Positions 5,532 through 58,960 of a DNA stretch of 64,000 bases are shown here, in pieces. The notes beneath the pieces were generated by a model, which saw only the letters and a list, made by a program, of their open reading frames with translations, was not told where the DNA came from and did no database searches. Source of the DNA: Patescibacteria group bacterium. GTDB taxonomy: Bacteria; Patescibacteriota; Microgenomatia; Daviesbacterales; UBA10151. The first letter of the stretch is position 1; every line of letters starts with the position of its first letter. The translations under genes and the position numbers were made by a program. The stretch is from the NCBI GenBank assembly GCA_943356485.1, contig CALRFD010000005.1:32103-96102 (forward strand), in the 5' to 3' direction.

Positions 5532-7004
5532 ATGATGGAAAAATTAAAAGAAAATTGGTTCATTATAGTTATAATATTGTTGATTTTTTTTACCCGTTCT
5601 CTTTTGTTTAATAAAGATGCTGCCTTCTTTTGGGCTGATGAACGCCACTTTCAACAAATGATTATAAAACTTCAGGAGTCAAAAGAAAAAAATGACTTTA
5701 TGATTGCGGTAAATACAATTTTTCACTTAAACGCCCGCCCAGGACTCGGATTATTTTATTTTCCATCAGCAATTCTTCAATGGGAAAATCCTGATATTCC
5801 TTTTGGTTCTTATTTTAATATCTTCATTAATTCTTCAGTACTACTGTTAATTTATTTAATTGTAAAAAAAACTTACGGATTTAGATCAGCAATTTTATCT
5901 CTTTCTTTTGTGTTATTTTCTTCATCCACTGCTATTTATTTAAGACATTTATTGCCATATGATGCGTCGTTATTTACTTTACTACTAGGATTATTAATTT
6001 ATGTGTATACACAAAAAGCATTCAGATTTGGATTATTGGCAGGGTTGTCTTTTCTTACTTATGCCAGTTATTATTATATATTGCCAATTCCATTAGTTCT
6101 CTTTTTGTATCATAAATCCTTGAAGCCAGCTATATTTTTCTTACTGGGGACTGCAGCAACTCTTATCTTTGCAAATTTTATGTATATTTACTTTGACCAC
6201 TCATCCTACTTTCAATCTGTTAAAGCGGAGTCCGCAGGTGTAACTTCTGTTCACATAGGGGATTATGTATCGGCATTTTCTTATATAAGTCAGTATATTT
6301 TTACCATTGATGGAGTTTGGCATACATTTTTAATTTTTACCTCTTTAATCTTATTAATTTTTCAGTGGAAAGAAAAAAAGCTTAATATTTTGGGTACTTA
6401 TTTATTATTAACTTTTCTAATTATGGAAATTACATCCCATGTTCTAAAAATGCACGTGCTATATGGAAGGACTGTAAGGCCTTTTTATTTATCAGCATTA
6501 GTCATTTCCGGAATCATTTTTCATAGAGTATTTGCGCGAGTATCTAAAGGGAGTAAAGTAATCTATTTTCGGTATTTCTTCTTAATAATATTTGTTACAT
6601 TTTTAATTTGGTTACCAAATTTTTTAACGTTTAAAAATCTTATTTACCCGGAGCAATTTAAGAAATTGGCTAAGCAGTATTTAGTAACAAAATATAATAA
6701 TCCCTCAAATGTAGAGGAAGTCTTGTTTGTAAATTATTTCGGTGTAGGTAGCCCTCCAAAAATGAATGTCTTTAAGGAATATAAAGGTTCAAAACAAAAG
6801 ACGTTTTATATAGTTAATGCTAACGTTATTTATCCTTACTATGGCAGTTATGATATGAATTTATTTTGCAAAAATGAAATTTTACTTAAGGAGCTGCATA
6901 TACAGTCTAAATTTAAACCATACCTGTTTGAGGGATGGGGAGAAGCTATGAGAGGGCAAGCAGATAAGGATCCCCTTTATTATCAATTAATATACTGTAA
7001 ATAG
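5532..7004 (+). CDS. Polytopic membrane protein, probable PMT/ArnT-like GT-C glycosyltransferase
   Basis: Multiple TM helices are present. FFWADERHF after TM1 resembles the FDEvHF loop-1 motif of the GT39/PMT family. Confidence 0.45.
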   Translation: MMEKLKENWFIIVIILLIFFTRSLLFNKDAAFFWADERHFQQMIIKLQESKEKNDFMIAVNTIFHLNARPGLGLFYFPSAILQWENPDIPFGSYFNIFINSSVLLLIYLIVKKTYGFRSAILSLSFVLFSSSTAIYLRHLLPYDASLFTLLLGLLIYVYTQKAFRFGLLAGLSFLTYASYYYILPIPLVLFLYHKSLKPAIFFLLGTAATLIFANFMYIYFDHSSYFQSVKAESAGVTSVHIGDYVSAFSYISQYIFTIDGVWHTFLIFTSLILLIFQWKEKKLNILGTYLLLTFLIMEITSHVLKMHVLYGRTVRPFYLSALVISGIIFHRVFARVSKGSKVIYFRYFFLIIFVTFLIWLPNFLTFKNLIYPEQFKKLAKQYLVTKYNNPSNVEEVLFVNYFGVGSPPKMNVFKEYKGSKQKTFYIVNANVIYPYYGSYDMNLFCKNEILLKELHIQSKFKPYLFEGWGEAMRGQADKDPLYYQLIYCK

Positions 7005-7095
7005 TCTAAAAATGGACACGAATTTAGATAGTTCTCTTATATAGGAGTAAGCGATATAATCAAACCACAAAATTAAGCTTTAAGAAAACTATAAA

Positions 7096-8211
7096 ATGAT
7101 TAACTTAACCAATATTTATCTTGATAAAAAAATAGCAACTGAAGTACAAAAAGTTCTATTGTCCAAATCATTAGTGCAAGGAGAAAAAGTAAGAGAGTTA
7201 GAAGCAGAGATGAGTAAAGTTAACGAGACAAGGTACGCTGTGGTGGTTAATTCAGGGACTGCAGCTTTGCATACAGCTTTAGTAGCAATTGGCTTAAGAG
7301 AAGGAGATGAAGTTATTACAACACCATTTTCTTTTATCGCCACAGTAAATACTATCTTAATGTGCAAAGCAAAACCGGTTTTTATTGATGTAAATAAGGA
7401 AACTTTTACGATAGATCCTGATTTAATAGAGGATAGGATATCTAAAAAAACAAAGGCGATAGTAACAGTTGATTTATATGGACAGACCTGTGACTACAAA
7501 AAAATAAGTAAAATCGCCAAAAAATATAACCTTAAAATTATAAGTGATTCTTGTCAGGCAATTGGAGCTATGTATAAAAGTAAGCCAATAGCTAAATGGG
7601 TTGATATTGCTTGTTTCTCTTTTTATGCTACAAAAAATATCATGATGGGAGAAGGTGGAGCTTTGGTGACAAATAACAGAAAAGTTTTTGAATTCGCAAA
7701 GCGATTTAGGCAACATGGTCAGGATATGGAAAAGCCGTATTTTTACCATCACTTAGGATATAACTATAGATCGACAGATATTTTAGCTGTAATTGGACTC
7801 TCACAAATAAAATTTTTAAAAAAATGGACAAAACAAAGATATGATAATGCATGTAAATTAATAAAGGGTTTGAAAGGAATTCCAGGGATAATTACCCCTA
7901 ATTTAAGGGTTGAAGGGGAACATGTATTTCATCAATTTACTATTCGTATAACTAAGGATTATCCCTTGCTAAGAGATCAATTGCGTTCCTATCTTTTTGA
8001 TCACGGGGTTAGATCAGGCGTATATTATCCTTGCGTTTTAGCAGAATACCCTTTTATAAAAGAGATAATTCCTTATAACAAGGATATGTATCCGGTTGCT
8101 GAAGAACTTTCTTCTCAGGTATTGTCTCTTCCCGTTCATCCAATGCTTAAAAACTCAGAGATTAAAAAGATAGTATCCTTGATTAAAAAAGGGGCAAATG
8201 AAAAAAATTAG
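7096..8211 (+). CDS. DegT/DnrJ/EryC1/StrS-family PLP-dependent sugar aminotransferase (WbpE-like)
   Basis: It has DLYGQ, SFYATKN (the Lys region) and GEGGALVTNN motifs. It is followed by a Gfo/Idh/MocA oxidoreductase and an acetyltransferase. Confidence 0.85.
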   Translation: MINLTNIYLDKKIATEVQKVLLSKSLVQGEKVRELEAEMSKVNETRYAVVVNSGTAALHTALVAIGLREGDEVITTPFSFIATVNTILMCKAKPVFIDVNKETFTIDPDLIEDRISKKTKAIVTVDLYGQTCDYKKISKIAKKYNLKIISDSCQAIGAMYKSKPIAKWVDIACFSFYATKNIMMGEGGALVTNNRKVFEFAKRFRQHGQDMEKPYFYHHLGYNYRSTDILAVIGLSQIKFLKKWTKQRYDNACKLIKGLKGIPGIITPNLRVEGEHVFHQFTIRITKDYPLLRDQLRSYLFDHGVRSGVYYPCVLAEYPFIKEIIPYNKDMYPVAEELSSQVLSLPVHPMLKNSEIKKIVSLIKKGANEKN

Positions 8212-9142: not shown

Positions 9143-9143
9143 C

Positions 9144-9665
9144 ATGAAAAAAGTAAATATTCATAAAACAGCAGAAATAGGTAAAAATACAATAATTGGA
9201 GAGAATACTCGAATTTGGCATTTTGTACAAATACGGGAAAATGTAAAAATTGGTTCTAATTGTATTATAGGTAAAAACGTATATATCGATTTTGAAATAG
9301 AAATTGGAAATAACTGTAAGATTCAAAATAATTGTTCAATTTACCATAAAACAATTGTTGAGGATGGTGTTTTTATCGGACCTCATGTAATTATCACAAA
9401 TGACAAAAATCCCCGCGCAATAGATCAAAAAGGCAAGATAAAATCGGCAAACGATTGGAACGCAGGAAAGGTAACTGTACGTTTTGGCGCATCTATTGGA
9501 GCAGGGAGTATTATTCTGCCCAATATCACTATCGGAAAATTTGCGATGATAGGTGCCGGTTCAGTTGTATCTCATGATGTAGCGGACTTTGCTCTTGTTT
9601 ATGGAAATCCGGCTAAGCTGCATGGAAGAGTTGATGAAAGCGGTTCTATTATTGAACGGTTTTAA
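9144..9665 (+). CDS. Hexapeptide-repeat N-acetyltransferase (WbpD/WlbB/PglD-like)
   Basis: Left-handed beta-helix repeats are visible (IGENTRIWHFVQIRENVKIGSNCIIGKNVYI...). It starts 1 bp after the oxidoreductase stop and its size (173 aa) is typical of WbpD-type enzymes. Confidence 0.75.
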   Translation: MKKVNIHKTAEIGKNTIIGENTRIWHFVQIRENVKIGSNCIIGKNVYIDFEIEIGNNCKIQNNCSIYHKTIVEDGVFIGPHVIITNDKNPRAIDQKGKIKSANDWNAGKVTVRFGASIGAGSIILPNITIGKFAMIGAGSVVSHDVADFALVYGNPAKLHGRVDESGSIIERF

Positions 9666-9666
9666 T

Positions 9667-10608
9667 ATGTACAAACGCAGTAAGATTGCAGTATCGATTC
9701 CTGCTTATAATGAAGAATCTCTTATTAGGAAAACACTTGAAGCTATCCCATCATTGGTTGATTTAATAGTTGTAGTTGATGATAAAAGTAAGGATAAAAC
9801 TGTTGATGAAATTAAAAAGTGCATTAAGAAAGACAGAAGGATCCACTTGATAGTTTCAAAAAATAACATTGGTTTAGGAGGTACTGTCATAAAAGCGCAT
9901 CAATTTGCCATAGAAAAAAATGTAGATATTATCGTGGTTATGGCAGGGGATAATCAGATGGATTCATCTTACCTACCTTTATTGCTGGATGCGGTTATAG
10001 AGGATAGAGTAGATTTAGCAAAAGGAAATCGTTTTTTTCACCGCCAGGACTTAAAAAAAATGCCAGTTTTTAGAATAATAGGAAATATATTTTTGACTTT
10101 TGTGTCAAAATTTTGTACAGGCTATTGGTCGATTTCAGATCCTATCAACGGGTATACGGCTCTAAAAGCGGAGACCTTTAAAAAAATCGATGTTTCCAGG
10201 ATCTCATCTCGATATGGATTTGAGCCATCCTTGTTAATTGAACTTTCACTTATAAGCGCAAAAGTTAAAGATGTCTTTATACCAGCCCGTTATGGAGATG
10301 AAATATCGAAAGTAAATCTTTTTAAAGATCCCTTTTGGGTAGTTAAAACTTTTTTAAATGGATATCTGATAAGAATCTTTTTAAAATATACATTGTATAA
10401 TTTTCATCCGATCGCGCTTTTTTATGGGACAGGTTTTTTATTTAGTTTTACAGGTTTTTTGTTTGGGATTTATATTGCTTTTAACAGCCTTCTGTTACAT
10501 AAGATTGCCACCCCGGCAACGGTCGTATTATTTGTTGTGCCATTTTTACTGGGGGTACAGCTTATTCTTCAGGCAATTGTTTTAGATATTCAAAATGAGC
10601 CAAAGTAA
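9667..10608 (+). CDS. GT2 glycosyltransferase with C-terminal TM helices (polyprenyl-phosphate sugar synthase-like)
   Basis: The GT2 signature is IAVSIPAYNEE...VVVDDKSKDKT. Two hydrophobic C-terminal helices are present. I placed the start at ATG 9667 (MYKRSK), 1 nt after the upstream stop, rather than at 9589, which overlaps the upstream gene. Confidence 0.75.
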   Translation: MYKRSKIAVSIPAYNEESLIRKTLEAIPSLVDLIVVVDDKSKDKTVDEIKKCIKKDRRIHLIVSKNNIGLGGTVIKAHQFAIEKNVDIIVVMAGDNQMDSSYLPLLLDAVIEDRVDLAKGNRFFHRQDLKKMPVFRIIGNIFLTFVSKFCTGYWSISDPINGYTALKAETFKKIDVSRISSRYGFEPSLLIELSLISAKVKDVFIPARYGDEISKVNLFKDPFWVVKTFLNGYLIRIFLKYTLYNFHPIALFYGTGFLFSFTGFLFGIYIAFNSLLLHKIATPATVVLFVVPFLLGVQLILQAIVLDIQNEPK

Positions 10609-36083: not shown

Positions 36084-36413
36084 ATGAATAAAATAGTTAT
36101 TAAATTTTTTATATCAACTATATCAATTGCTTTTTTTTGGGGACTTGAATCAGGTTTTACACAGAGAAACGGGTATGAGTTAATAAAATCTATAATTTTT
36201 GCCTCTTCTTTTTTTATAGTTTTAACTAAAAAGTATAAACAATATATTCTTTGGATATCTACTTTCCTATTGATCAGTATGATTATTCTATACTTACTTT
36301 GGCAAATACAACTCTCTGATTTATTAGGAAGTATTGGATTCGGTATGTTTTTTATATTTATCTTAAGCTATTTGCCCGATTTAGTAAGGATTGGGTTTGT
36401 TAAAGATAAGTGA
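36084..36413 (+). CDS. Small 3-4 TM membrane protein, partner of the upstream giant membrane protein (paralog of 32282..32638)
   Basis: It is 109 aa and hydrophobic, with a conserved C-terminal LSYLPDLVRIGFVKDK. It occupies the same position relative to its giant gene, 8 bp downstream. Confidence 0.45.
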   Translation: MNKIVIKFFISTISIAFFWGLESGFTQRNGYELIKSIIFASSFFIVLTKKYKQYILWISTFLLISMIILYLLWQIQLSDLLGSIGFGMFFIFILSYLPDLVRIGFVKDK

Positions 36414-44224: not shown

Positions 44225-45355
44225 TTAGAGGATTTTCTTCAATACTTCAACCATATAATCTATTTCACTATTTTTAAGCTGAGGGTAAATTGGTAGCCTG
44301 ATTAAGGTGGAGGAAACCTCTTCTGTAATTGGGCAGGATCCTTTTTTGTAACCCAGTTGTTTCCCCATAACTGATGTATGGAGCGGTAGGAAATGAAATG
44401 AGGCTTCGACTCCGTATGATTTAAGCTCTTTAACAATGCGACTGCGGGACGACTTTGGCACTCTGATGGCAAAAATATGCCAGTTTGGATCAGTTCCTTG
44501 ACTAACCTGAGGCAGAACTATTTTTGAAGAAAGTGATCTTAGCTTTGTTAATAGATACTCAGCCTTTTTTTGTCTTAAAGAGGTAATCTGGCTCAATTTT
44601 TTCATTTGGACTAGCGCAATCGCAGATAAAATATCCGATAAAATTAAACTGCGCCCGACTCTAACCCATGAATACTTTCCCCTTTCCCCCCGCATAAACG
44701 AAGAACGGTTAGTACCCTTTTCCCTGATAATCTCGGCAATTTTATTAATTTTTGAATTATTTGTTACAAATGCACCTCCTTCACCTGAAGCAGCATTTTT
44801 TGTGCCATGAAATGAGTAACATCCTATCAGACCAAGGGTTCCCAAGTATTTACCATAATACTTTGCTCCCAGCGCGTGGGCTGCATCTTCTATGACAATA
44901 AGTTTATAAGTGTGGGCGATCTTATTAATTTCTTCCATGTCGGCGGCCATACCGGCGTAGTGAACAACCATAATTGCTTTAGTTCTTTTGGTGATTAATT
45001 TTTCTATATCTTTCGGGTTTATATTATAAGTTTGAATATCAATGTCAGCAAAAACAGGTTTTCCTCCGGCTAAGAGTATGGCATTGGCGCAGGATGAAAA
45101 AGTAAATGAAGGTAATATCACCTCATCTCCTTTGTTTAAGAAAAGGGCAAAGGCTAATTCAAGAGAAGCAGTGCCTGAACCTGTGGGTAGTGCGTATTTA
45201 GAGCCTACTATTTGTGATATTTCTTTAGAAAGAAGTTCACTATAATTTAGATCCCCTACTCCTGTACCGCTACGCATAGCCATGACTGCTGCTTTTTCTT
45301 CGTCTTTTCCCCAGAATGGTTTATGTAAAGGTATGAGGTATTTATTTTGAGACAT
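44225..45355 (-). CDS. DegT/DnrJ/EryC1-family PLP-dependent sugar aminotransferase (ArnB/PglE-like), second copy
   Basis: It has the FHGTKN Lys motif and GEGGAFVTNN. It is 376 aa. Confidence 0.85.
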   Translation of the reverse strand: MSQNKYLIPLHKPFWGKDEEKAAVMAMRSGTGVGDLNYSELLSKEISQIVGSKYALPTGSGTASLELAFALFLNKGDEVILPSFTFSSCANAILLAGGKPVFADIDIQTYNINPKDIEKLITKRTKAIMVVHYAGMAADMEEINKIAHTYKLIVIEDAAHALGAKYYGKYLGTLGLIGCYSFHGTKNAASGEGGAFVTNNSKINKIAEIIREKGTNRSSFMRGERGKYSWVRVGRSLILSDILSAIALVQMKKLSQITSLRQKKAEYLLTKLRSLSSKIVLPQVSQGTDPNWHIFAIRVPKSSRSRIVKELKSYGVEASFHFLPLHTSVMGKQLGYKKGSCPITEEVSSTLIRLPIYPQLKNSEIDYMVEVLKKIL

Positions 45356-45361
45356 TTTTAG

Positions 45362-46084
45362 TTATTTTTTTGGAATTTGAGACCTAAAACGGTATATTTT
45401 TTTTAGGTAATCCAAGGTATCAGGTATCAGATTGACTGTGGATTTTTTGTCAGTTCGTCTGATAAAAAGAACCGGTATCTGACTAATTCTTAATCCTTTC
45501 CAAAAAGAACGGGCGCAGATTTCCGTATCCCAGAACCAACCCTTCTCTGTAATCTTTGAGATAACCGGCAAAATTGCTTCTCTTTTGAAAAATTTATAAC
45601 CTGCTTCCGTATCATCAATGGGTAAGCGTAGAAGCCAATGAACTATTAGTTTATAACCTTTGGAAGAAATCACCCTGGAGATAGCTGATAAATTTTTTTC
45701 ATAAAATCTGTTTCCAACAACTAAATCAAAACCTTTTTCCAGTTCCTGAATAAACAAAGGAATATAGTCTGCAGAAACCTCTAAATCAACATCTAAAAAA
45801 CCACAATAAATGCCTTTTGCCCAGTTGATCCCATCACTAACTGCTTTTCCCCTGCCTTCATTTTTGCTATGTTGAATTAAGCGGCTGTTTTTAAAACCCG
45901 GTAATAATTTTTGTATTTTTTGCAGGGTGTTATCCGTACTTTTATCTTCAACAAAAATTAATTCCCAACTCTTTGTCAATTTTTGTAAACTCTTATAAAT
46001 TATTTTTAAGTTTTGCTCAAGAATTGAACCTTCATTATACAGAGGAATTATTAATGAAAGGTAAGGCTTTGACATTGGCTTCAT
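45362..46084 (-). CDS. GT2 glycosyltransferase, ArnC/DPM1-like polyprenyl-phosphate sugar synthase
   Basis: It carries LSLIIPLYNEGSIL...LIFVEDKSTDNT and FLDVDLE. It is 240 aa. Confidence 0.7.
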   Translation of the reverse strand: MKPMSKPYLSLIIPLYNEGSILEQNLKIIYKSLQKLTKSWELIFVEDKSTDNTLQKIQKLLPGFKNSRLIQHSKNEGRGKAVSDGINWAKGIYCGFLDVDLEVSADYIPLFIQELEKGFDLVVGNRFYEKNLSAISRVISSKGYKLIVHWLLRLPIDDTEAGYKFFKREAILPVISKITEKGWFWDTEICARSFWKGLRISQIPVLFIRRTDKKSTVNLIPDTLDYLKKIYRFRSQIPKK

Positions 46085-46143
46085 TCTAATTAAATGTATA
46101 TATAATGTAAAGGTATGTTATATAATTTTTATAGAACAAATCT
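46085..46143. promoter_or_regulatory. Divergent promoter gap with two TATATAAT-like -10 boxes
   Basis: The sequence reads gtatatataatg and gttatataattt in the 59-bp gap between the divergent GT2 (-) and acetyltransferase (+) genes. Confidence 0.3.
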
Positions 46144-46689
46144 ATGCAGGCAATTAAAGAAATAGGATTCAAAAAGGCATTTAAATTTTTCCTGTTTAGT
46201 TTTTTCCAACTTTTTTTTGGCTTAATGATTTTGCCCCAACTTAGAAAAGTGCTATTGCAGATTGGCGGAGCAAAAATCGGCAGAGATTCTATTATTATGG
46301 GAGTACGGTTTTTTAACTGGCATCATCAAGGATTAAGTGGGGTTAATATTGGAAAAGAATGTTTTATTGGTGATGAGACTCTGATTGATTTATATAATAA
46401 AGTAGTTTTAGAAGATCAGGTGACAATCGCTCAGAGGGTCACCCTTTTAACCCATATGAATGTGGGTTATAGAAACCATCCCTTGCAAAAATATTTTCCG
46501 TCCAGCAGCGCACCGATTCTTTTAAAGAGAGGATCGGTGATTGGAGCTTCCGTAACTATTTTACCCGGGGTGGTTATCGGAGAAAATTCAATGGTTGCAT
46601 CAGGAGCAGTGGTTACAAAAGATGTCCCAGATATGACTTTAGTAGGTGGAGTTCCTGCTAAGGAAATAAGAAAATTAGATGAAAAATGA
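46144..46689 (+). CDS. Hexapeptide-repeat acyltransferase (WcaF/LacA-like sugar O-acetyltransferase type)
   Basis: An N-terminal hydrophobic segment is followed by left-handed beta-helix repeats (IGGAKIGRDSIIMG...IGKECFIGDETLID...). It is 181 aa. Confidence 0.7.
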   Translation: MQAIKEIGFKKAFKFFLFSFFQLFFGLMILPQLRKVLLQIGGAKIGRDSIIMGVRFFNWHHQGLSGVNIGKECFIGDETLIDLYNKVVLEDQVTIAQRVTLLTHMNVGYRNHPLQKYFPSSSAPILLKRGSVIGASVTILPGVVIGENSMVASGAVVTKDVPDMTLVGGVPAKEIRKLDEK

Positions 46690-48215
46690 AGATCTTAAAT
46701 TTAGTAAAGAAGTATAGAGTTTATCTTTTATTTGTCCTGATTATAGCCATTTCTATTTTTCTTAGATTTCACCGTTTGGGCGATATTTATGTTTTTAACT
46801 TAGATGAAGAGTACCAAGCGAGTTATGCCTGGACAGAAGTTTTGCACCCGCACAGGATTTGGATTGGTCTGGTAGCGGCTGCGCTGGAGTTTTATATTGG
46901 GCCTTATGTGGTTTATCTGACTGCAATCTTGCTTGGTATATCACATGGAGACCCACTAATCACCGCTTATTTCGCTGCCGGCTTAGGAGTGGTAACTACA
47001 GCAGCAATATTCTTTATCGGGAAGAAGGTTTTTAATTTAACTACAGCAGTTTTGGCCGCCTCTCTTTATGCCACAATGCCCATTTTTGTTTTTTTTGATC
47101 AGAAATATTGGAATCCGATGTTTGGTCCTTTAGTAACAGTATTACTATTTTTAAGCTTAATACAAACTAAACAATCAAAATGGTGGTGGGTTGTTTTTGC
47201 CGGTCTGGCCGGAATAATATTTGAAACTCATTTACCGCCATTTCCACTTTTATTGATTGGAGGATGGGGTTTTCTAAAGCATCGATATTGGCAGGATCTA
47301 AAACTACTTACTTTTTGTATAGTTGTATTTTTAATATTCTATTGGCCGCTTTTAGTTTTTGATTTTAATCATGATTTCAGTAATTTAAAGGTTGTTACCA
47401 GACTTTTTGTAACAAATAGCCAGTCAAAGGTATCTTTTAATCCAGGAGCTAAATTCGGCACGCTTTTTGATAGTATGGGTAGATTTTGGTATTTAAGACC
47501 CGGCTCCCCGAATGCAGATGAGGTTAATTTTGGCTGTTCATCGCTATCTTTATCAACCGGTTTTGAAACAATAGATAAATATACCAGGAGAACATATGCG
47601 CCATTTTGGTTATCTTCAATCTCCCTTATATTGCTTTTAATCTTTTTAAGAAAGAATCTAAGGAATGCGGACGATAATTGTAGGATTTTAGCACTATTTT
47701 TAACTATTTCCGGATTTTTCTTCCTGATTTATCCCGGAGGATCTTTTGAATATTATGCTCTGATATTTTTGACTTTATTTACCTTTGTGCCGGGAATATT
47801 AATTAGTCAACTAAACAAAAAACTGGCAGTAGGTTTGTTCGGAATAATTATTATATTCTCTATTTTAGGTATTAACACCGTTCTTCATACTTCAGATGAA
47901 TTTAGTTTAGGCCCAAAGAAAAAACTAATTGCTGAAGTAATGAAGATTGTAGGTCAAGAGGACTTTGCCATTGAAGGAAGGGGAATATGTCATAATTATG
48001 AAGGCTGGAGATATTTATTTAAAGTCTATGGCAGGGTTCCAACTCAGAGCTATACTGATGATAGCCTTGGCTGGTTATATCCCAAAGAGATAGGAAAGGA
48101 AAAACCTGCCATCACTGTTATCCTTTCTGAAGACAGGATTCCGCTTAAAGAAGATCTATCCAGCCTTACCTCTGTCAGATCAGGAGGGTATAGGGCGTAT
48201 ATCAGGAAAAAATAA
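46686..48215 (+). CDS. PMT/ArnT-like GT-C membrane glycosyltransferase, paralog B
   Basis: It has FNLDEEYQASYAW. The N-terminal ~360 aa are diverged from paralog A, but the 3' 432 bp are nearly identical to it. Confidence 0.6.
   Translation: MKILNLVKKYRVYLLFVLIIAISIFLRFHRLGDIYVFNLDEEYQASYAWTEVLHPHRIWIGLVAAALEFYIGPYVVYLTAILLGISHGDPLITAYFAAGLGVVTTAAIFFIGKKVFNLTTAVLAASLYATMPIFVFFDQKYWNPMFGPLVTVLLFLSLIQTKQSKWWWVVFAGLAGIIFETHLPPFPLLLIGGWGFLKHRYWQDLKLLTFCIVVFLIFYWPLLVFDFNHDFSNLKVVTRLFVTNSQSKVSFNPGAKFGTLFDSMGRFWYLRPGSPNADEVNFGCSSLSLSTGFETIDKYTRRTYAPFWLSSISLILLLIFLRKNLRNADDNCRILALFLTISGFFFLIYPGGSFEYYALIFLTLFTFVPGILISQLNKKLAVGLFGIIIIFSILGINTVLHTSDEFSLGPKKKLIAEVMKIVGQEDFAIEGRGICHNYEGWRYLFKVYGRVPTQSYTDDSLGWLYPKEIGKEKPAITVILSEDRIPLKEDLSSLTSVRSGGYRAYIRKK
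47778..48209 (+). repeat. 432-bp near-identical direct repeat, copy 2 (3' end of GT-C paralog B)
   Basis: It is the counterpart of 43783..44214 at an offset of 3995 bp. A second identical 60-bp patch lies at the same offset (43069..43128 and 47064..47123). Confidence 0.9.
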
Positions 48216-48217
48216 TA

Positions 48218-49162
48218 ATGAAAATTGTATTTCTTAGCAGATATCAAAACAGTATTCAACGCGGAGCAGAAACTTTCGTTAGAGAATTAAGCAAGCAGTT
48301 AAGTCTAAGTCATGAAGTTAGTATTTTAGTTGGAGAAAAGGCCGATAGCTTAAGCGAAATTTTAAAAGGTGATTATCAAATTGTAGTAGCAGTTAATGGT
48401 GGGGCGCAAAGCCTGAAAGCTTCTATTGGGAGATTAAGAAAAAAGTATAAGTTGATAATTACCGGGCAGGCAGGGATTGGCAGGGGAGAAATTTTTAACC
48501 TGGCGGTTGCCAGGCCGGATTTATATGTGGCGCTGACAGACGCTATGTTTAAATGGGCAAAACCTTGGGCTTGGGGGAGTAAGGTTGTTAAAATATCAAA
48601 CGGGGTAGATATAGAAAAATTTACTCCGTTTGGAAAAAAGATGAGTCTTAATTTAGTAAGCCCGGTTATTTTATCAGTCGGGGCGCTGGTTGATTATAAG
48701 CATCATGAAAGAAGCATTATTGCAGTCTCTAAGTTAAATAAGGGCTCACTTTTGATAGTCGGACAGGGACCAAAGGAGAGTAGGCTTCAGGGTTTAGGTG
48801 ATAGGCTATTAAAATCCAGGTTTAAAATATTACATGCAGATTATCAGGATTTGCCAAAAATTTATCGAAGCGCTGACCTTTTTGTTTTGCCGTCCTGGTC
48901 AAGGGAGGCGTTTGGTATAGTATACTTGGAGGCTATGGCTTCTGGACTGGGAATCGTAGCACCAGATGATCCATCAAGAAGGGAAATTATTAGTGAGGCT
49001 GGAATATTAACAGATGTGCTAGATGATAATAAATATACTGAGGCGATCGAAAGGGCACTTCTAATTGATTGGCAGTCTAAGGCTTTAAAACAGGCAAAGC
49101 TTTTTAGTTGGGATAAAATTGGGAGAAAATATGAAGAAGAGTTTGAAAAATTATTAAAATGA
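48218..49162 (+). CDS. GT4 (GT-B fold) glycosyltransferase
   Basis: The C-terminal domain has FGIVYLEAMASGLGIVAPDD, an EX7E-like motif. Confidence 0.7.
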   Translation: MKIVFLSRYQNSIQRGAETFVRELSKQLSLSHEVSILVGEKADSLSEILKGDYQIVVAVNGGAQSLKASIGRLRKKYKLIITGQAGIGRGEIFNLAVARPDLYVALTDAMFKWAKPWAWGSKVVKISNGVDIEKFTPFGKKMSLNLVSPVILSVGALVDYKHHERSIIAVSKLNKGSLLIVGQGPKESRLQGLGDRLLKSRFKILHADYQDLPKIYRSADLFVLPSWSREAFGIVYLEAMASGLGIVAPDDPSRREIISEAGILTDVLDDNKYTEAIERALLIDWQSKALKQAKLFSWDKIGRKYEEEFEKLLK

Positions 49163-49923
49163 ATATGATTTCAGCAGTTATTGTTACTTTTAATGAAGAA
49201 AAGAAACTGGAAGACTGTTTAAAGAGCATTTATAAAAAGGTAGATGAAATAATAATAGTTGATTTAGGCTCAACTGACAAAAGTCTGCAGATTGCATCCA
49301 AATACGAGGCTAAAGTTTTTAAACATGAAAATGTTGACTATGTTGAAAAGGTTAGGGATTTTTCTATTTCCAAAGCAAATGGTGAGTGGATTTTAGTTTT
49401 GGATCCTGATGAAAGGATAACACATTCACTTTTTGAAAAATTAAAGGAGATAATATCAGAGGGTAAATATACAGCTGTAAACATCCCTCGAAAAAATATT
49501 TTTTTTGGCCGATGGATAAGGCATACAAACTGGTGGCCGGATAGACAAATTAGGTTTTTTAAAAAAGGTAAAGTAAGCTGGAGCAGTAAAATACACAGTT
49601 ATCCGAAGGTTTATGGGTTGAGTCTGGAATTAATTTCCAGACCGGAATTATCAATAACGCATTATGGTTATGATAATATCCAACAGTTTATAGACAGGCA
49701 AAACAGGTATTCCTCAATTGAAGCGGAAAATAGATTTAACCTGGGAGAGAGATTTTCCTTTTTTAAACTTGGCTGGTTTCCTTTAAGGGAGTTTATAGTC
49801 AGGTTTATAAGACACGGCGGTTATTTAGACGGAAAATATGGATTTATTTTAACTTATTTAATGATGGTATATCAATTGATGGTAATGATCAAAATTTGGG
49901 AGTTGAGGAAAAGGGGAAAATGA
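49159..49923 (+). CDS. GT2 glycosyltransferase
   Basis: It carries ISAVIVTFNEEKKLEDCLKSI...IIVDLGSTDKS and LDPDE. Confidence 0.7.
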   Translation: MNMISAVIVTFNEEKKLEDCLKSIYKKVDEIIIVDLGSTDKSLQIASKYEAKVFKHENVDYVEKVRDFSISKANGEWILVLDPDERITHSLFEKLKEIISEGKYTAVNIPRKNIFFGRWIRHTNWWPDRQIRFFKKGKVSWSSKIHSYPKVYGLSLELISRPELSITHYGYDNIQQFIDRQNRYSSIEAENRFNLGERFSFFKLGWFPLREFIVRFIRHGGYLDGKYGFILTYLMMVYQLMVMIKIWELRKRGK

Positions 49924-51350
49924 TTTGGTTGATATTATTTTTAAGTCTAATACTTAGGATAGTGAGTTTAAATCAAAGCCTTTGGTTAGATGAGGCAATT
50001 AATGTCATGGCGGCGCGAAGCTATTCTTTTTTAGGAATTTTAACAGAGTATGCTAAAGCTGATTTTCATCCACCCCTATACTTTATAATTATTTGGATCT
50101 GGACAAAACTATTCGGCTTTTCTGAAGTTTCAGCCAGATTACCTTCAGTTATTTTTGGCTTATTAACAATCTGGCTGGTCTTTTTAATTGGCCGGAAGTT
50201 ATATTCTAAGACATTAGGCATCTTAGCTGCTTTATTATTGGCACTTAATCCACTGCATATTTATTACAGTCAGGAAGCAAGGATGTATTCTATGGCAGCT
50301 TTTGCAGTGGTGCTTAACTTACTTTTTTTTATTTTTTTATTAAAAAAAGAAAGGATAAATTTAGTCTTTATTATTTTTAGTAATTTTTTAATATTAATGT
50401 CAGATTATGTTGCATATTTGATTTTTCCATCTCAGTTATTATTAATATTACTATTAAAGGAAAGGAGCCTTTTAAAAAGATGGGGAGTTGGTTTGCTTAT
50501 CTCTTTAATCTTAATTATTTTTTGGATACCTGTATTTTTAAGTCAAATAAGCATAGGTCTTAATATTTCTAAAGATATTCCGGTCTGGAAAGCCGTTGTG
50601 GGCGCTTTTGATTTAAAAAACATAGCCTTAACTTATATTAAATTTATAATTGGAAGAATTAGCCTGGATAATAAATTAATTTATGTAAGTATACTTATGC
50701 CCGTTTGCGCATACTTTGGCTATTTCTTATTTAGAGGGTTAAAATTTGCTTCCAATTTTAATAGAAAATTATTACTGATATTAACTATAGTTCCTATATT
50801 TTTAGCATCAGCAATTTCGATAGTAGTGCCTATATACAGCTATTTTAGATTACTCTTTCTATTGCCTATTTTCCTTATCATAGTTTCATCTGGGATCTTG
50901 TCATTTAAAGCCAGAAGCAGACACTTTTTTTTAATTGTTTTTATCTTGATTGAGACTTTTTCGTCTATGACTTATTTATTAAATACTACTTTTCAAAGGG
51001 AAGACTGGAGAGGTTTAGTTACTTTTCTTAAATCCAAAAACAGCGTACCCGTTTTATTTGAAAGCTCCGGTGCTTTTTCACCGTTTGACTACTACGGGGG
51101 AAAAACAATTAAAGGAGTTGGTGCGCTGAAGAACTTTCCAGCCAGAGATTTAAAGGATATAAAAGACTTAAAAACAGAACTAGGTAGTAAAAACGATGTT
51201 TTTTTGATAGATTATTTAGTCGATATATCTGATCCTTCAAGATTGGTTTCGAAAAGTTTATTATCTTTAGGATATAAACAGATGAGAACTTATAACTTTA
51301 ATGGGGTTGGATTTGTATATTATTTTAAGAAAGATGAAAATGCGCAGTAA
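49920..51350 (+). CDS. PMT/ArnT-like GT-C membrane glycosyltransferase (GT39/83-like)
   Basis: The N-terminus has LWLDEAINVMAARSYSF (a DE loop-1 motif) and HPPLYF, in a multi-TM protein. I placed the start at ATG 49920, an ATGA overlap, rather than at 49896. Confidence 0.65.
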   Translation: MIWLILFLSLILRIVSLNQSLWLDEAINVMAARSYSFLGILTEYAKADFHPPLYFIIIWIWTKLFGFSEVSARLPSVIFGLLTIWLVFLIGRKLYSKTLGILAALLLALNPLHIYYSQEARMYSMAAFAVVLNLLFFIFLLKKERINLVFIIFSNFLILMSDYVAYLIFPSQLLLILLLKERSLLKRWGVGLLISLILIIFWIPVFLSQISIGLNISKDIPVWKAVVGAFDLKNIALTYIKFIIGRISLDNKLIYVSILMPVCAYFGYFLFRGLKFASNFNRKLLLILTIVPIFLASAISIVVPIYSYFRLLFLLPIFLIIVSSGILSFKARSRHFFLIVFILIETFSSMTYLLNTTFQREDWRGLVTFLKSKNSVPVLFESSGAFSPFDYYGGKTIKGVGALKNFPARDLKDIKDLKTELGSKNDVFLIDYLVDISDPSRLVSKSLLSLGYKQMRTYNFNGVGFVYYFKKDENAQ

Positions 51351-52701
51351 GATATTACTAATTTTAATTATAATTTTCCATATTTTTATTTTATATAAAC
51401 TGATATTTTTCCCTTATCCGGAGTTTTTTGTTTATCCTTATTTAACTAATCACGGACTTTTGCCTTATCAACAAATTTTAGATCAGCATTTTCCCGGTTT
51501 AATGTTTCTGCCAATTAATTTTGATAACTTAGGGATGAATAATGAGCATATTGCCAGAATTTGGCTCGTAATGGTAGTTGTTTTGACCCAGGTGCTTATT
51601 TACTGGAGCGCTAAAAATATACTGAAAAGCTCTTACATTGCGTTGCTGGTAAATCTTCTTTATCTGATATGGCAGCCTTTTTTTGAAGGGTGGGTACTTT
51701 GGATTGATACTTTTCTTCCTTTATTTTTAATACCGGCCTTTTATTTAACTTATAAATTTATAGTTGAAGGTAAAAAGAGTATTAAACTGTCTTTTTTTAT
51801 AGGTTTACTACTAGGAATAAGTGTTGTTTTTAAACAGGTTGTTTTACCTTTGACAGGACTTAGCTTTATATACTTACTCTGGCAGAAAAAAAGTATTAAA
51901 TTTGCCTTACCTTTTTTGCTTGGTTTTTTACCCCCGGTTTTAATGATGTTATTTTTTCTTTATCAAATTGGGGTAATTAAGGATTTTTGGTATTGGACAG
52001 TTGTTTTTAATTTGACAACTTTTGCAGAATATGGCAGAAAATTACCCTTTCTTAGCGGTTTAGTCAGAGTTGGTTTTGTTTTATTTTTTGGTTTATCAGT
52101 CTTTTTTTGCAGGGACAGGAAGCTTTATTTAACCCTAGCTCTTTTTACCTTAGGTTCTTTAATGGCTATTTATGCGCGTTTTGACTTTGTGCATTTTCAG
52201 CCAGCTCTACCTTTTATATTAATATCTACTGTCGTTGGTATGAATTCAATAAAAGATAAAATTTATTTTAAAGGGCTAGTCCTCATTTATTTAGCTGTTA
52301 TTTTTTGGTGGATGTTTATTTTTTATAAAGGCCATCTGGTAAATAAAGTTATGTTTTTTGACACTCAGACAAAAGAAATTGCAGCAAAGGTCAGTCGATA
52401 TACAAAGCCAGGGGATAAAATATTTATTTTCGGTACAGTGCCTCATATTTACCAGATGACAAATACCATGCCAGCAGGGGACGTCTTCGTTTTTCAGTTC
52501 CCTTGGTTTTTAAGAGTAACTGAGGATAGGTTGTTGGAGGGATTAAAAGAGGATAAGCCCCGGATTGTTGTTTCGGATAGAACAGTTGAGATTGAAGGTA
52601 GTAAAATAGTGGATTTTGCAAAGAAGTTGGACACTTATATACAACAAAACTATAGGCAAATAGATCAGGTTGGTGATACTAAGATTTTACGCCGGTTGTA
52701 G
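51334..52701 (+). CDS. Polytopic membrane protein, function unknown
   Basis: It has about 10 hydrophobic helices. I placed the start at the internal Met MKMRSKILLIL (51334), overlapping the upstream stop by 17 bp. The ORF track starts it at 51301. Confidence 0.5.
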   Translation: MKMRSKILLILIIIFHIFILYKLIFFPYPEFFVYPYLTNHGLLPYQQILDQHFPGLMFLPINFDNLGMNNEHIARIWLVMVVVLTQVLIYWSAKNILKSSYIALLVNLLYLIWQPFFEGWVLWIDTFLPLFLIPAFYLTYKFIVEGKKSIKLSFFIGLLLGISVVFKQVVLPLTGLSFIYLLWQKKSIKFALPFLLGFLPPVLMMLFFLYQIGVIKDFWYWTVVFNLTTFAEYGRKLPFLSGLVRVGFVLFFGLSVFFCRDRKLYLTLALFTLGSLMAIYARFDFVHFQPALPFILISTVVGMNSIKDKIYFKGLVLIYLAVIFWWMFIFYKGHLVNKVMFFDTQTKEIAAKVSRYTKPGDKIFIFGTVPHIYQMTNTMPAGDVFVFQFPWFLRVTEDRLLEGLKEDKPRIVVSDRTVEIEGSKIVDFAKKLDTYIQQNYRQIDQVGDTKILRRL

Positions 52702-55510: not shown

Positions 55511-55512
55511 AA

Positions 55513-56055: not shown

Positions 56056-57474
56056 ATGGAAAAAACAGCAAAGTTTATTAAAAAAGTATTATTTTTTTTG
56101 GTAGTATTGCTATTTATATTTATTCCTTTATACCCAAAATTTCCATTGATTAATATTAAAGGAACCTTTGTGGCGATCAGGTTTGAAGATTTTATTATCG
56201 GGTTGAGCGTTGGAATATGGGTTATATATTTGATTATCTCAAAACAGCTAAAGTTTTTGTTAAAAGATAAATTAAATCAGGCGATACTACTATTTTTTTT
56301 TGTTGGCCTGGTTTCAACTTTTTCAGCCTCATTTTTAACCCATTCGGTAGTTTGGTACCTAAGTTTACTGCACCTTTTAAGAAGAGTCGAGTTTATGATT
56401 TTGTTACCTGTTGTAGCAACTATTGTAACTGACAAAAAAAGATTGATTTGGATTTTGTCTTTTTTAATCCTAACTCTAATTTTAGTTAATATATATGCTT
56501 TGGGACAGCAATATTTAGATTGGCCGGTAATATCCACCACTAATTCTGAATTTTCAAAAGGGCTTATTTTACGTTTAACACCGGGCGCTCGCGTAAATTC
56601 CACTTTTGCCGGGCATTATGACTTAGCTGTATTTTTGGCGATGGCACTCGTGATGTTAACCGCGCTTTTCTTCACTGTAAAAAAGCGGATAAAAGTCTTA
56701 CTTTTAATATTAGGCGGAATATCCCTTTTGGTATTAATTATGACTGCGGCCAGGCTTTCATTTGCGGCGGCTTTTATCGGGGTTATCGCTGCTTTACTTT
56801 TCACAAAAAAAAGAAAGTACATAATTTTTATTATTGTTGGACTAGCAGCTATTTTGATATATCCTTCTCAACTGCAGGAAAGATTTATTTCTACCATTAC
56901 AGTTAACCTGTTTCATCAGGGACAAAGATATGTAGGTCAGAGTGAAGATCAAAATATCAGAAGTAAAATAAATATTCCAACTCTGGCAATAAAGACCTCA
57001 AGCAATTCTGCAAAAACATCAACTTTTTCTACCCAGTCTGGGACTATCTCTTCTGACATTGCTCCGGGTGAACCGGTTGATACAACAGAGTTAGGGGTTT
57101 ACCGGTCTTTTGAAATCAGGTATAAAATTGAATGGCCAAGGGCGATTGAAGCTTTTGTTAAGAATCCTTTCTTGGGGACAGGCTACTCTTCGATTGATAT
57201 TGCGACCGATAATGATTTCTTAAGATCACTGGGAGAAGTAGGACTATTAGGTACAATTTCTTTTATTTTGGTATTTATTGAAATTATTAAAAGAATCTTT
57301 TCAGGATTCAAAAATCCAGACAGGTTTCTGCGATATTTTTATGCAGGTACCTTAGCGATGTTAATTGCGTTTTTGGTAAATGGATTATTTATTGATGTAT
57401 TTGAAGCCTCAAAAGTAGCTTCTCTTTTTTGGATGATGGTAGGACTTTGTTTAGCTATAGAGCAATATAGCTAA
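56056..57474 (+). CDS. Wzy_C/O-antigen-ligase-family membrane protein (Wzy polymerase or WaaL-like ligase)
   Basis: It has about 10-12 TM helices. The large loop carries RYKIEWPRAIEAFVKNPFLGTGYSS...DNDFLRSLGEVGLLG, resembling the Wzy_C R...W...P.FG.G signature, and is preceded by a Ser/Thr-rich stretch. Confidence 0.5.
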   Translation: MEKTAKFIKKVLFFLVVLLFIFIPLYPKFPLINIKGTFVAIRFEDFIIGLSVGIWVIYLIISKQLKFLLKDKLNQAILLFFFVGLVSTFSASFLTHSVVWYLSLLHLLRRVEFMILLPVVATIVTDKKRLIWILSFLILTLILVNIYALGQQYLDWPVISTTNSEFSKGLILRLTPGARVNSTFAGHYDLAVFLAMALVMLTALFFTVKKRIKVLLLILGGISLLVLIMTAARLSFAAAFIGVIAALLFTKKRKYIIFIIVGLAAILIYPSQLQERFISTITVNLFHQGQRYVGQSEDQNIRSKINIPTLAIKTSSNSAKTSTFSTQSGTISSDIAPGEPVDTTELGVYRSFEIRYKIEWPRAIEAFVKNPFLGTGYSSIDIATDNDFLRSLGEVGLLGTISFILVFIEIIKRIFSGFKNPDRFLRYFYAGTLAMLIAFLVNGLFIDVFEASKVASLFWMMVGLCLAIEQYS

Positions 57475-57493
57475 AGATGTTTTAATTTAAGAT

Positions 57494-58960
57494 ATGAAAA
57501 TAATAACTGTTTTAAAAAATCAATATTTTTGGTTGAGTTTAATTATTATTTTTGGATTTTTAGTAAGAATTTATAAAATTGATGCCCCGGTTGCAGATTG
57601 GCATTCGTGGCGGCAAGCGGATACAGCAGCAGTTACCAGAAATTTTATAAAATTAGGTTTTAATCCATTTATACCAAAATATGATGATATGTCAGGAGTT
57701 TCGGAGCAGCCTGTTGTAAATTTAGGTCGATTCCGTTTTGTAGAGTTTCCTCTTTACAATATTTTTGTCTACCCATTTTATTTAATGTTTGGTGTAAGCG
57801 AAAAATATCACCGGCTTGTAACTATTATTTTTTCGATGGGTTCAACAACTTTGCTTTTTTTTATTGTCAGAAAATATTCTGGAGTTTTAGAAGGATTACT
57901 AACCTCTTTTATATATGCTTTTATGCCGTTTAATGTTTTTTTTACTCGGACTATCTTACCGGATCCGACCTTTGTTTGTTTTTCTTTAGGGATGATTTAT
58001 TTTGTCAGTAATTGGATTGAGAAAGAAAGGCGAAAGGATTTATTGTTTGGCTTATTCTTTACAAGCCTCGCTTTTTTATTAAAACCCTGGGCAATATTTT
58101 TCTATTTGCCGCTTTTATATTTGTTATTTAAAAAAAACAAAAAGTTTATCTTAAAATTTTTTATATTTTCCGTTCTTTCTTTTTTACCGTTTCTAATTTG
58201 GAGACTTTGGATTTTGCAGCAGCCGGAGGGGATACCTGCATCAAGTTGGCTGCTTAACAGTGATGGGATAAGATTTCGGCCGGCATTTTTCTGGTGGATT
58301 ATTTCTGAAAGATTGGGTCAGGAAATTTTAACTGCCACAGGCATGGTGCTTTTTTTCATCGGGTTAATTATTAAACCTAAAAATGGAAATTACTTTTTGC
58401 ATTTTTGGGCTTTATCGGCTTTTTTATTTATTGTAATATTTGCCACCGGAAATGTCAGACATAATTATTACCAAATTTTATTTATTCCTGTTGCCTCGAT
58501 ATTTCTTGGCAAAGGTTTTTTAGATTTATTAAAAGGGAGCGGATTATTTTTACCAAGAATATATACTATTCCCTTAGCCCTATTATTTTTTGTTCTGACT
58601 TTTTATTTTGGGGCAAAACAAACAGTAGGTTTTTATCAAATAAATAATCCGGTAATTGTTGAGGCGGGTAAGAAGGCGGATAAAATTTTGCCGCAAAATG
58701 CTATAGTTTTGGCGCCATATAATGGTGATACAGCTTTTCTTTATCAGAGTAATAGAGCCGGATTTGCTTTTGTTCCATTACCCATAACTGATATGATTGC
58801 AGATTATGGAGTTACCAGTTATGTATCGACCACTTATGACCCAAAAACAGCTTGGGTAATCAGACATTTTAAAGTATTGGAACAAAATCCAGGATTTGTA
58901 ATTGTTGATTTAACAACGATTAAGGTAAAGCTTGACTATTTAGTTGATCCTGAGCCTTAA
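57494..58960 (+). CDS. Polytopic membrane protein, probable ArnT/PMT-like GT-C glycosyltransferase
   Basis: The N-terminus has DAPVADWHSWRQADTAAVTRNF after TM1, followed by multiple TM helices and a C-terminal soluble region. Confidence 0.45.
   Translation: MKIITVLKNQYFWLSLIIIFGFLVRIYKIDAPVADWHSWRQADTAAVTRNFIKLGFNPFIPKYDDMSGVSEQPVVNLGRFRFVEFPLYNIFVYPFYLMFGVSEKYHRLVTIIFSMGSTTLLFFIVRKYSGVLEGLLTSFIYAFMPFNVFFTRTILPDPTFVCFSLGMIYFVSNWIEKERRKDLLFGLFFTSLAFLLKPWAIFFYLPLLYLLFKKNKKFILKFFIFSVLSFLPFLIWRLWILQQPEGIPASSWLLNSDGIRFRPAFFWWIISERLGQEILTATGMVLFFIGLIIKPKNGNYFLHFWALSAFLFIVIFATGNVRHNYYQILFIPVASIFLGKGFLDLLKGSGLFLPRIYTIPLALLFFVLTFYFGAKQTVGFYQINNPVIVEAGKKADKILPQNAIVLAPYNGDTAFLYQSNRAGFAFVPLPITDMIADYGVTSYVSTTYDPKTAWVIRHFKVLEQNPGFVIVDLTTIKVKLDYLVDPEP

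Follow-up and report, generated by a model that had tools for sequence, protein, structure and literature searches.

A 64,000-nt stretch of contig CALRFD010000005.1 from a Patescibacteria group bacterium (hereafter the window, with genes named by their start positions in window coordinates) was found to encode eleven membrane proteins that are GT-C-type glycosyltransferases by family or fold membership. The eleven genes, all of the GT-C(A) type, lie between 3921 and 58960 (55 kb), amounting to one per 5 kb and to 34.6% of the window, and a Wzy_C-type protein is encoded in addition. The density that a first-pass annotation of the same DNA had called exceptional, at about 9-12 such genes in 53 kb, was thus borne out. 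Because the eleven genes occur in a gene order common to distant relatives, the lineage probably has an elaborate surface glycan that is built or decorated outside the membrane, and the earlier suggestion of an outer-face glycan with arabinogalactan-like logic appears a reasonable inference by analogy. The pathway proposed here, considered likely from the sequences and structure models, is a hybrid one, where cytoplasmic enzymes would make a lipid-linked backbone that would then be glycosylated repeatedly on the outer side of the membrane.

Four of the eleven proteins were AftD-like, five were of the PMT_2 type, and two came from families without any profile model. The Pfam gathering thresholds were 26 bits for GT-C_AftD (PF11847) and 26.1 bits for PMT_2 (PF13231), and the labels L001 to L011 denote the other contigs compared. 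NCBIfam gave no name for most of the following proteins.

3921..5528, + strand: GT-C-fold membrane protein, loop-1 AFQDDDWRG (AlphaFold2 (AF2) pLDDT 82.3; no Pfam or NCBIfam model)
5532..7004, + strand: GT-C-fold membrane protein, loop-1 FWADERHF (AF2 pLDDT 88.6, pTM 0.89; no Pfam or NCBIfam model)
22192..24333, + strand: AftD-like GT-C of 713 amino acids (aa), 11 transmembrane (TM) segments with one of them at the C terminus, loop-1 AGGEEG (GT-C_AftD 43.3 bits over a partial stretch)
28800..32285, + strand: AftD-like GT-C of 1161 aa, loop-1 YGGGDVG (GT-C_AftD 30.3 bits, residues 41-570, above the gathering score)
32647..36075, + strand: AftD-like GT-C of 1142 aa (723 bits to 28800; GT-C_AftD 22.8 bits, under the gathering score)
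36571..39252, + strand: divergent AftD-like GT-C-type protein of 893 aa (phmmer 1e-16 to 22192 and 28800; no Pfam match)
42712..44223, + strand: PMT_2-type GT-C, loop-1 FNFDEEYQASYAW (PMT_2 22.6 bits, under the gathering score)
46686..48215, + strand: PMT_2-type GT-C, close paralog of 42712 at 66% identity and 737 bits (PMT_2 21.1 bits, under the gathering score)
49920..51350, + strand: PMT_2 GT-C, loop-1 LWLDEAINV (PMT_2 64.4 bits, above the gathering score; NCBIfam Agl23 44.9 bits)
51334..52701, + strand: PMT_2-like GT-C candidate (PMT_2 23.9 bits, under the gathering score; ortholog in L011 at 610 bits)
57494..58960, + strand: PMT_2 GT-C, loop-1 VADWHSWRQADTA (PMT_2 62.3 bits, above the gathering score)

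All eleven candidates contained 8-11 hydrophobic segments, as counted by a Kyte-Doolittle scan and not by a dedicated topology predictor. The eight open reading frames (ORFs) that the annotation had named (3921-5528, 5532-7004, 42712-44223, 46686-48215, 49920-51350, 51334-52701, 57494-58960, and the Wzy_C-type 56056-57474) were all present and polytopic and carried the quoted motifs, with alternative starts at TTG 49896 for the 49920 ORF and at 51301 for the 51334 ORF. The acidic motif sits directly after the first TM segment, for example as FWADERHF in 5532, FN(F/L)DEEYQASYAW in 42712 and 46686, and LWLDEAINV in 49920, whose loop 1 includes LDE; in 57494 the loop reads ADW..RQAD. The motif is predicted to lie on the extracytoplasmic side. 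Family alignments were constructed for the 5532 (A1), 3921 (A2), AftD-like (A3), and 42712 (A4) families. D36 and E37 were invariant in A1 (100%), D37 was present in 100% of A2 with D or E at positions 38 and 39 in 100%, D34 (87%) and D/E55 (94%) were retained in A3, and D33 (95%) and E35 (88%) in A4. The annotation had envisaged that the proteins might turn out to be transporters or that the motifs might vanish on alignment; profile matches and fold searches instead gave GT-C, and the loop-1 acidic residues were kept at 87-100% in the four families.

The AftD-like proteins 22192, 28800, 32647, and 36571 formed one paralogous family. Each opens with an N-terminal domain of ~10 TM segments, continues into a large extracytoplasmic region, and closes with a C-terminal segment that contains a last TM and is homologous among them. 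In 28800, for example, a C-terminal TM follows ~10 N-terminal TM segments and an extracytoplasmic domain of ~700 aa (DUF5667 in relatives). Paralogy between 22192 and 28800 was detected at 190 bits, and the phmmer similarity of 36571 to these two proteins extends over the N-terminal TM domain as well as the C-terminal segment; 36571 also had a weak NCBIfam match to MmpA (36 bits). The GT-C_AftD model was matched by 18 of the 31 aligned relatives of the family. Homologs of 28800 numbered 257, many of them from Candidatus Daviesbacteria, and orthologs were found in L006 for 22192 (1085 bits), 32647 (1621 bits), and 36571 (1250 bits), the last also in L007 (881 bits) and L010 (907 bits). A PDB sequence search with 28800 returned nothing useful. 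The extracytoplasmic domains of the AftD-like proteins (~450-700 aa) may bind the acceptor polymer, by analogy with the carbohydrate-binding modules of AftD, Emb, and GT136, which bind the polysaccharide acceptor (PMC11127046, PMC8035078). Identity with AftD proper, the decaprenyl-phosphate-arabinose (DPA)-dependent arabinofuranosyltransferase, was rejected: no sequence-level match to the solved AftD was found in the PDB and no gene of the DPA pathway was recognized in the window, where the Pfam annotations included neither a UbiA-type DPPR synthase nor DprE1/E2.

The genes 28800 and 32647 are each directly followed by a gene for a small membrane protein.

32282..32638, + strand: small membrane protein of 118 aa, ~4 TM segments, directly after 28800 (paralog of 36084 at 39 bits)
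36084..36413, + strand: small membrane protein of 109 aa, ~4 TM segments, directly after 32647 (paralog of 32282)

Each of the two had a separate ortholog in L006 and L010. The ~4 TM segments were read from hydropathy, and the two proteins are candidates for lipid-sugar flippases (GtrA/SMR-like) or for accessory or activator subunits similar to GacJ.

Among the PMT_2-type proteins, the 42712 family included 2239 representatives in a HMMER search of the whole library, and the PMT_2 model was matched by 53 of its 59 aligned members with a best E-value of 8.6e-15. The more divergent 51334 aligned to the profile of this family (A4) in hhalign with a probability of 94% (E 1.4e-7).

The remaining two proteins, 3921 and 5532, had no Pfam match even at E 10 and no NCBIfam match, and since they lack a profile model their families are candidates for new CAZy families. 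AF2 models were built on alignments of their homologs. The top Foldseek matches of the 5532 model were ALG9, ALG12, STT3, Pmt4, AftA, PglB, ArnT, and AftB; the top structure matches of the 3921 model were also GT-C only, the closest being Pmt4 and STT3/AglB/PglB. In hhalign, the 5532 family aligned to the PMT_2-type 42712 family at 97.4% with the DE motifs in register, and the 3921 family did so more weakly, at 85.7%. An hhalign comparison of the 3921 family with the AftD-like family was not significant. Of the 38 homologs of 5532, the sole named one was from Patescibacteria, and a PDB sequence search with 5532 gave nothing useful. An oligosaccharyltransferase reading of 3921 was dropped as the WWDxG motif was not found; a regular-expression search recovered neither WWD nor W[WY]DxG in any protein of the window. 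In L003 and L004, a gene similar to the glycosyltransferase 42017 lies directly beside the homologs of 3921 and 5532.

Enzymes of glycosyltransferase family 2 (GT2), which may supply lipid-linked sugars to the GT-Cs, were assigned to subtypes by their NCBIfam match profiles.

415..1347, + strand: GT2, polyprenyl-phosphate sugar synthase-like of the GtrB/ArnC/PgfS type (PgfS 234.8 bits, ArnC 157.8 bits, full length)
9589..10608, + strand: GT2, AglJ-like, possible polyprenyl-phosphate sugar synthase with C-terminal TM segments (AglJ 71.7 bits, residues 33-334; PpgS 42.8)
21122..22195, + strand: GT2 of the PgaC/rhamnosyltransferase/GlfT1 type, likely a cytoplasmic backbone transferase (4-nt overlap with 22192)
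25513..26415, + strand: GT2 of the rhamnosyltransferase/PgaC type (Pfam, NCBIfam)
26573..28810, + strand: GT2 of the rhamnosyltransferase type fused to two tandem S-adenosylmethionine (SAM) methyltransferase domains (11-nt overlap with 28800)
42017..42715, + strand: GT2, polyprenyl-phosphate sugar synthase-like, no TM segment (AglJ 118 bits, PpgS 66.4 at full length, ArnC 66.6, PgfS 67.5)
45362..46084, - strand: GT2, polyprenyl-phosphate sugar synthase-like, paralog of 42017 at 73 bits (PgfS 78 bits, AglJ 57 bits)
49159..49923, + strand: GT2 of uncertain subtype with one C-terminal TM (SunS-like 48 bits; 4-nt overlap with 49920)

By these matches, 415, which has two C-terminal TM segments at ~224-289, is the best synthase candidate in the window; it had been overlooked in the first-pass annotation, as had 9589. 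The annotation had instead proposed five pairs, in each of which a GT2 makes a lipid-linked sugar for the GT-C encoded directly downstream (21122 and 22192, 26573 and 28800, 42017 and 42712, 45362 and 46686, 49159 and 49920). Donor-synthase-like GT2s do occur in the locus according to NCBIfam, and two of the five, 42017 and 45362, are synthase-like in their matches to AglJ, PgfS, ArnC, and PpgS, but 49159 is ambiguous and 21122 and 26573 do not belong with them. The latter two and 25513 had no match to the polyprenyl-phosphate sugar synthase models of NCBIfam and matched the PgaC, rhamnosyltransferase, HpsN, and GlfT1 types; on sequence they fit better as cytoplasmic backbone transferases, such as the mycobacterial WbbL and GlfT, than as donor synthases. 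The reading of all five GT2s as GtrB-like was rejected on this match profile. The direct upstream placement held with overlaps of 4-11 nt, except that 45362 is divergent on the minus strand and the acetyltransferase gene 46144 lies between it and 46686. The 4-nt overlap of 42017 with 42712 is accompanied by adjacency in L010, and the adjacency of 49159 to its PMT_2 gene is kept in L011. The DegT aminotransferase 44225, the GT2 45362, the acetyltransferase 46144, and the GT-C 46686 may constitute an amino-sugar module of the Arn-like or PpgS/Rv3779-like kind. Overall, about four donor-synthase candidates were found in the locus versus eleven GT-Cs. Few donors for many GT-Cs are normal where one lipid-linked donor is shared, for example DPA or dolichol-phosphate-mannose (Dol-P-Man). 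As a side observation, the functions fused in 26573 are split in L007 into a GT2 with a methyltransferase and a separate methyltransferase.

The gene order of the window from 19 to 53 kb recurs in relatives with one-to-one orthologs, where the membrane proteins share ~35-50% identity. For example, the Patescibacteria metagenome-assembled genome JBBTSA010000010 (L003, L006) contains a block in window order with its own ortholog for each AftD-like paralog and each small protein: carbamoyltransferase, GT2, AftD-like (712 aa), GT4, GT2, GT2 with methyltransferase, and AftD-like (1181 aa), followed by small TM protein, AftD-like (1128 aa), small TM protein, an 890-aa protein, Wzx, GT2, methyltransferase, and GT2. 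A Candidatus Daviesbacteria genome (L007) encodes orthologs of 28800, 32647, and 36571 plus two PMT_2-type genes within 14 kb, and the metagenome contigs L010 and L011 carry the synteny through 36-53 kb of the window, including the 42017-type GT2 with its GT-C and the 49159-type GT2 with its PMT_2 and PMT_2-like genes. The homologs of 5532, 3921, and 28800 were almost all metagenome proteins, and the named ones were from Patescibacteria, Microgenomates, and Candidatus Daviesbacteria, which places the source as a bacterium of the Microgenomates/Daviesbacteria type within the Candidate Phyla Radiation (CPR); its bacterial nature was confirmed by Bac_transf and RecO. The synteny with one-to-one orthologs argues against an assembly artefact or a one-off and for an ancient trait that selection has maintained in the lineage. 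Distant relatives carry a separate ortholog for every GT-C paralog, which implies eleven non-redundant steps and not recent redundancy.

Two differences in gene content were observed among these contigs. An extra gene of 765 aa without Pfam match occupies L006 6044-8341, at the place of the 157-bp gap 26416-26572 in the window. In addition, the module 44225-46689 (DegT, minus-strand GT2, acetyltransferase) separates the two 42712-type genes in the window, and these genes are directly adjacent in L010 (7172-10220). The module looks like an insertion, which may have added an amino-sugar donor.

The window, which has a GC content of 33%, is nearly all coding on the + strand, with tightly packed genes and many 4-nt overlaps. 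When each ORF of 100 aa or more was scanned with Pfam and NCBIfam, nearly all genes were assigned to glycan biosynthesis. Besides the GT-Cs, these included 10 GT2 and seven GT4 glycosyltransferases (Pfam); a sugar-modifying set of two DegT aminotransferases, one GFO oxidoreductase, and three hexapeptide acyltransferases; a sugar-nucleotide set of UDP-sugar dehydrogenase, epimerase/reductase genes, two nucleotidyltransferases, and a HAD phosphatase; and a tailoring set of several methyltransferases and two carbamoyltransferases. The Bac_transf, Wzx/MOP, and Wzy_C-type genes listed below represent initiation, export, and polymerization. The upstream edge of the locus was seen in the flanking contig L001, a few kb before the window, as GDPD, epimerase, and split transketolase genes, and the downstream edge in the flanking contig L008 as a DUF4012 gene directly ahead of recO. 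From these edges the locus measures ~70 kb, and the window is most of it.

39249..40538, + strand: Wzx/MOP-type flippase (Pfam Polysacc_synt 66.9 bits)
44225..45355, - strand: DegT-type sugar aminotransferase (Pfam 327 bits)
46144..46689, + strand: hexapeptide acyltransferase (acetyltransferase; Pfam)
56056..57474, + strand: Wzy_C-type protein with ~10 TM segments, candidate polymerase, ligase, or O-oligosaccharyltransferase (Pfam Wzy_C, PF04932, 31.7 bits; a marginal assignment, as this exactly equals the gathering threshold of 31.7)
63237..63866, + strand: small phosphoglycosyl transferase (Bac_transf), initiating enzyme (Pfam 204.9 bits)

From family and fold membership, motifs, operon structure, and synteny we infer the following catalytic steps, topology, donors, and acceptor, within the published framework of multi-component transmembrane glycosylation systems (PMC8035078; PMC11127046). 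Going by family membership, Bac_transf 63237 would prime polyprenyl phosphate on the cytoplasmic face, and the soluble GT4 enzymes and the rhamnosyl/GlfT1-type GT2 enzymes would lengthen the backbone, with sugars tailored by the aminotransferases, acetyltransferases, methyltransferases, and two carbamoyltransferases. The Wzx/MOP flippase 39249 would then export the lipid-linked material, and the Wzy_C-type 56056 would polymerize or ligate it. In parallel, 415, 9589, 42017, and 45362 would each put single sugars on polyprenyl phosphate, and these donors would then be flipped across the membrane, a role that the MOP protein or the pair of small 4-TM proteins may have. Finally, the eleven GT-Cs would transfer the donor sugars outside the membrane, as different residues or linkages, onto the glycan or onto surface proteins; the one-to-one orthology of the paralogs suggests a separate specificity for each.

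A number of results weigh against this pathway or the assignments beneath it. The synthase-like matches of 415, 9589, 42017, and 45362 were all far under the NCBIfam equivalog cut-offs. Individually, 32647 and 36571 fell under the GT-C_AftD gathering score and are linked to the family by paralogy, and 42712, 46686, and 51334 fell under the PMT_2 gathering score and were placed by transitive or profile evidence. By sequence, neither the AftD-like profile nor the 42712-family profile found a solved structure in the PDB, where the former also found no AftD chain, and the hhalign alignment of the AftD-like profile with the PMT_2-type profile was not significant. No obvious acidic loop-1 motif was present in 51334, and none was clear in 36571. 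Additionally, the small proteins 32282 and 36084 had no Pfam match even at E 10, GtrA included, and no flippase of the GtrA family was detected in the Pfam scan of the window.

The GT-Cs could mainly glycosylate proteins (S-layer, pilin, or other surface proteins) and not a polysaccharide, with the Wzy_C-type protein acting as an O-oligosaccharyltransferase. The PMT_2 family includes five of the proteins, the 3921 model is nearest to Pmt4 and STT3/AglB/PglB, the Wzy_C domain is also found in O-oligosaccharyltransferases, and a GT2 fused to methyltransferase domains recalls enzymes of S-layer glycans such as WsaE. However, the WWDxG-type motif occurs in no protein of the window, the locus holds a full polysaccharide toolkit, and the very large extracytoplasmic domains of the AftD-like proteins correspond to regions that bind polysaccharide in characterized relatives (PMC11127046, PMC8035078). 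Mainly protein-directed glycosylation thus appears unlikely as an alternative, and it is mutually compatible with the glycan pathway. It is quite unlikely that several of the GT-C-fold proteins are scaffolds, factors for lipid or glycolipid delivery, or acceptor-binding subunits, with catalytic steps well under eleven, as the loop-1 acidic residues are kept at 87-100% in the 3921, 5532, 42712, and AftD-like families, and two proteins each scored above the PMT_2 and the GT-C_AftD gathering thresholds.

The recent-looking paralogs 42712 and 46686 (66% identity), the absence from the corresponding place in L010 of the module between them, and the extra 765-aa gene of L006 would also suit a set of interchangeable, strain-variable decoration modules, which would diversify surface antigens or phage receptors in the manner of Gtr seroconversion cassettes without a single fixed glycan. 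The same-order one-to-one orthologs at ~35-50% identity across 19-53 kb of the window form a pattern unlike hypervariable cassettes, making this account very unlikely. The chance that the proteins are transporters or unrelated polytopic proteins with coincidental DE-like motifs is next to negligible: 3921 and 5532 lack Pfam and NCBIfam matches and the PDB sequence searches were empty, but the fold searches with 3921 and 5532 gave GT-C and the loop-1 residues are conserved, and this reading was rejected as far as computation allows.

Mycobacterial arabinogalactan and lipoarabinomannan (LAM) assembly (WbbL, GlfT1/2; AftA-D, EmbA-C) resembles the locus in that rhamnosyl/GlfT-type GT2s adjoin multiple large GT-Cs, that four of the GT-Cs are members or neighbors of the Pfam AftD family with big extracytoplasmic domains and a C-terminal TM, and that many GT-Cs share few lipid-linked donors. 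In mycobacteria, ~six GT-Cs lie in ~35 kb around embCAB, a density comparable to that of the locus. In contrast to the mycobacterial system, the locus belongs to an unrelated lineage of the CPR and contains PMT_2-type enzymes, two unclassified GT-C families, and a Bac_transf/Wzx/Wzy_C toolkit. Also close are the three- or multi-component systems (GtrB/GtrA/GtrC, CsbB/GtcA/YfhO, GacI/GacJ/GacK/GacL, and ArnC/ArnE-F/ArnT), in which polyprenyl phosphate receives one sugar from a GT-A/GT2 enzyme and a GT-C then uses this lipid-linked sugar on the outer side of the membrane (PMC8035078; PMC11127046). The overlap of 42017 with 42712 follows this arrangement, the module 44225-45362/46144-46686 is similar to the amino-sugar logic of Arn and PpgS/Rv3779, and the combination of TM-less GT2s, small membrane proteins, and a Wzx-type flippase recalls GacI/J/K/L. 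These systems, however, include one or few GT-Cs that decorate a polymer made elsewhere, whereas the locus has eleven with ~four candidate synthases, no detectable GtrA-family protein, and several GT-Cs adjoining GT2s of non-synthase types. Pentofuranose three-component systems with GT136 (Kelly et al. 2024, PMC11127046) share a GT-C with an appended extracytoplasmic, putatively acceptor-binding domain and a flippase of the MOP/MATE superfamily, but no polyprenyl-phosphoribose synthase was identified in the locus. The eukaryotic and archaeal Dol-P-sugar GT-Cs (ALG3/9/12, PMT, STT3/AglB) differ by an identity of only 7-14%, the WWDxG motif that the locus lacks, and the bacterial context.

Multi-component transmembrane glycosylation and mycobacterial-type, GT-C-rich wall assembly are already known in kind. 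New are the scale of eleven GT-Cs in one conserved locus, the CPR host lineage, the two GT-C families without a profile model, and the pairing of giant GT-Cs with conserved small membrane proteins. A literature search for GT-C loci in CPR found nothing relevant. Ultra-small cells, a minimal metabolism, and a lack of cultures characterize CPR bacteria, whose envelope chemistry is almost wholly uncharted; the genome hosting the locus is probably about four to five times smaller than a mycobacterial one. A ~70-kb locus with a third of the window in GT-Cs and a conserved gene order suggests a complex polymer under strong selection, one that may plausibly serve in host attachment or in resistance to phages and predators. 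More tentatively, Microgenomates-type CPR with ~1-Mb genomes might keep a conserved assembly line on the scale of arabinogalactan, with eleven non-redundant GT-C steps, 3921 and 5532 families found only in CPR-type metagenome sequences, and a dedicated 4-TM partner for each giant AftD-like enzyme. If so, the radiation would have a major wall or surface polymer of its own, structurally complex and possibly central to episymbiotic attachment. The large AftD-like family outside Mycobacteriales, together with the 3921 and 5532 families, offers targets for expression and structural work.

Several further features of the window were observed. The genes at 7096-9665 together with those at 11578-12927 (- strand) encode a DegT aminotransferase, a GFO oxidoreductase, a hexapeptide acetyltransferase, and a UDP-sugar 6-dehydrogenase, a set whose family content resembles the WbpA/B/E/D route to a 2,3-diacetamido uronic acid. 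NodU/CmcH-type carbamoyltransferases are encoded at 2170-3873 and 19359-21125, with 346 bits to each other, and the 19359 copy is kept in L003 and L006; two such enzymes in one glycan locus imply O-carbamoylated sugars. The transketolase within the glycan locus is split, with the N and pyrimidine-binding halves encoded by separate genes (window 5-406; L001 3653-4875), and may serve the synthesis of branched or two-carbon-modified sugars instead of central metabolism.

Three ORFs had no family match: 18067-19380 (437 aa), with a C-terminal TM and a very weak GT2-like match (E 0.18); 55513-56055 (180 aa), with an N-terminal TM and directly upstream of the Wzy_C gene 56056; and 60178-60831 on the - strand (217 aa). 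A shared promoter or repeat was sought among the 157-bp gaps at 26416 and 36414 and the 161-bp gap at 60832, which were unrelated when aligned. The intergenic region 60825-60890 contains a cluster of CCACAA/TTGTGG repeats, with AACACCACAATT at 60832 and AAAACCACAATT at 60862, TTGTGG on the opposite strand, and further copies TAACCACAAC at 60825 and TATCCACAAC at 60876. Flanked by the divergent 60178 ORF and the GT4 gene 60993 (+ strand), this cluster may be an operator.

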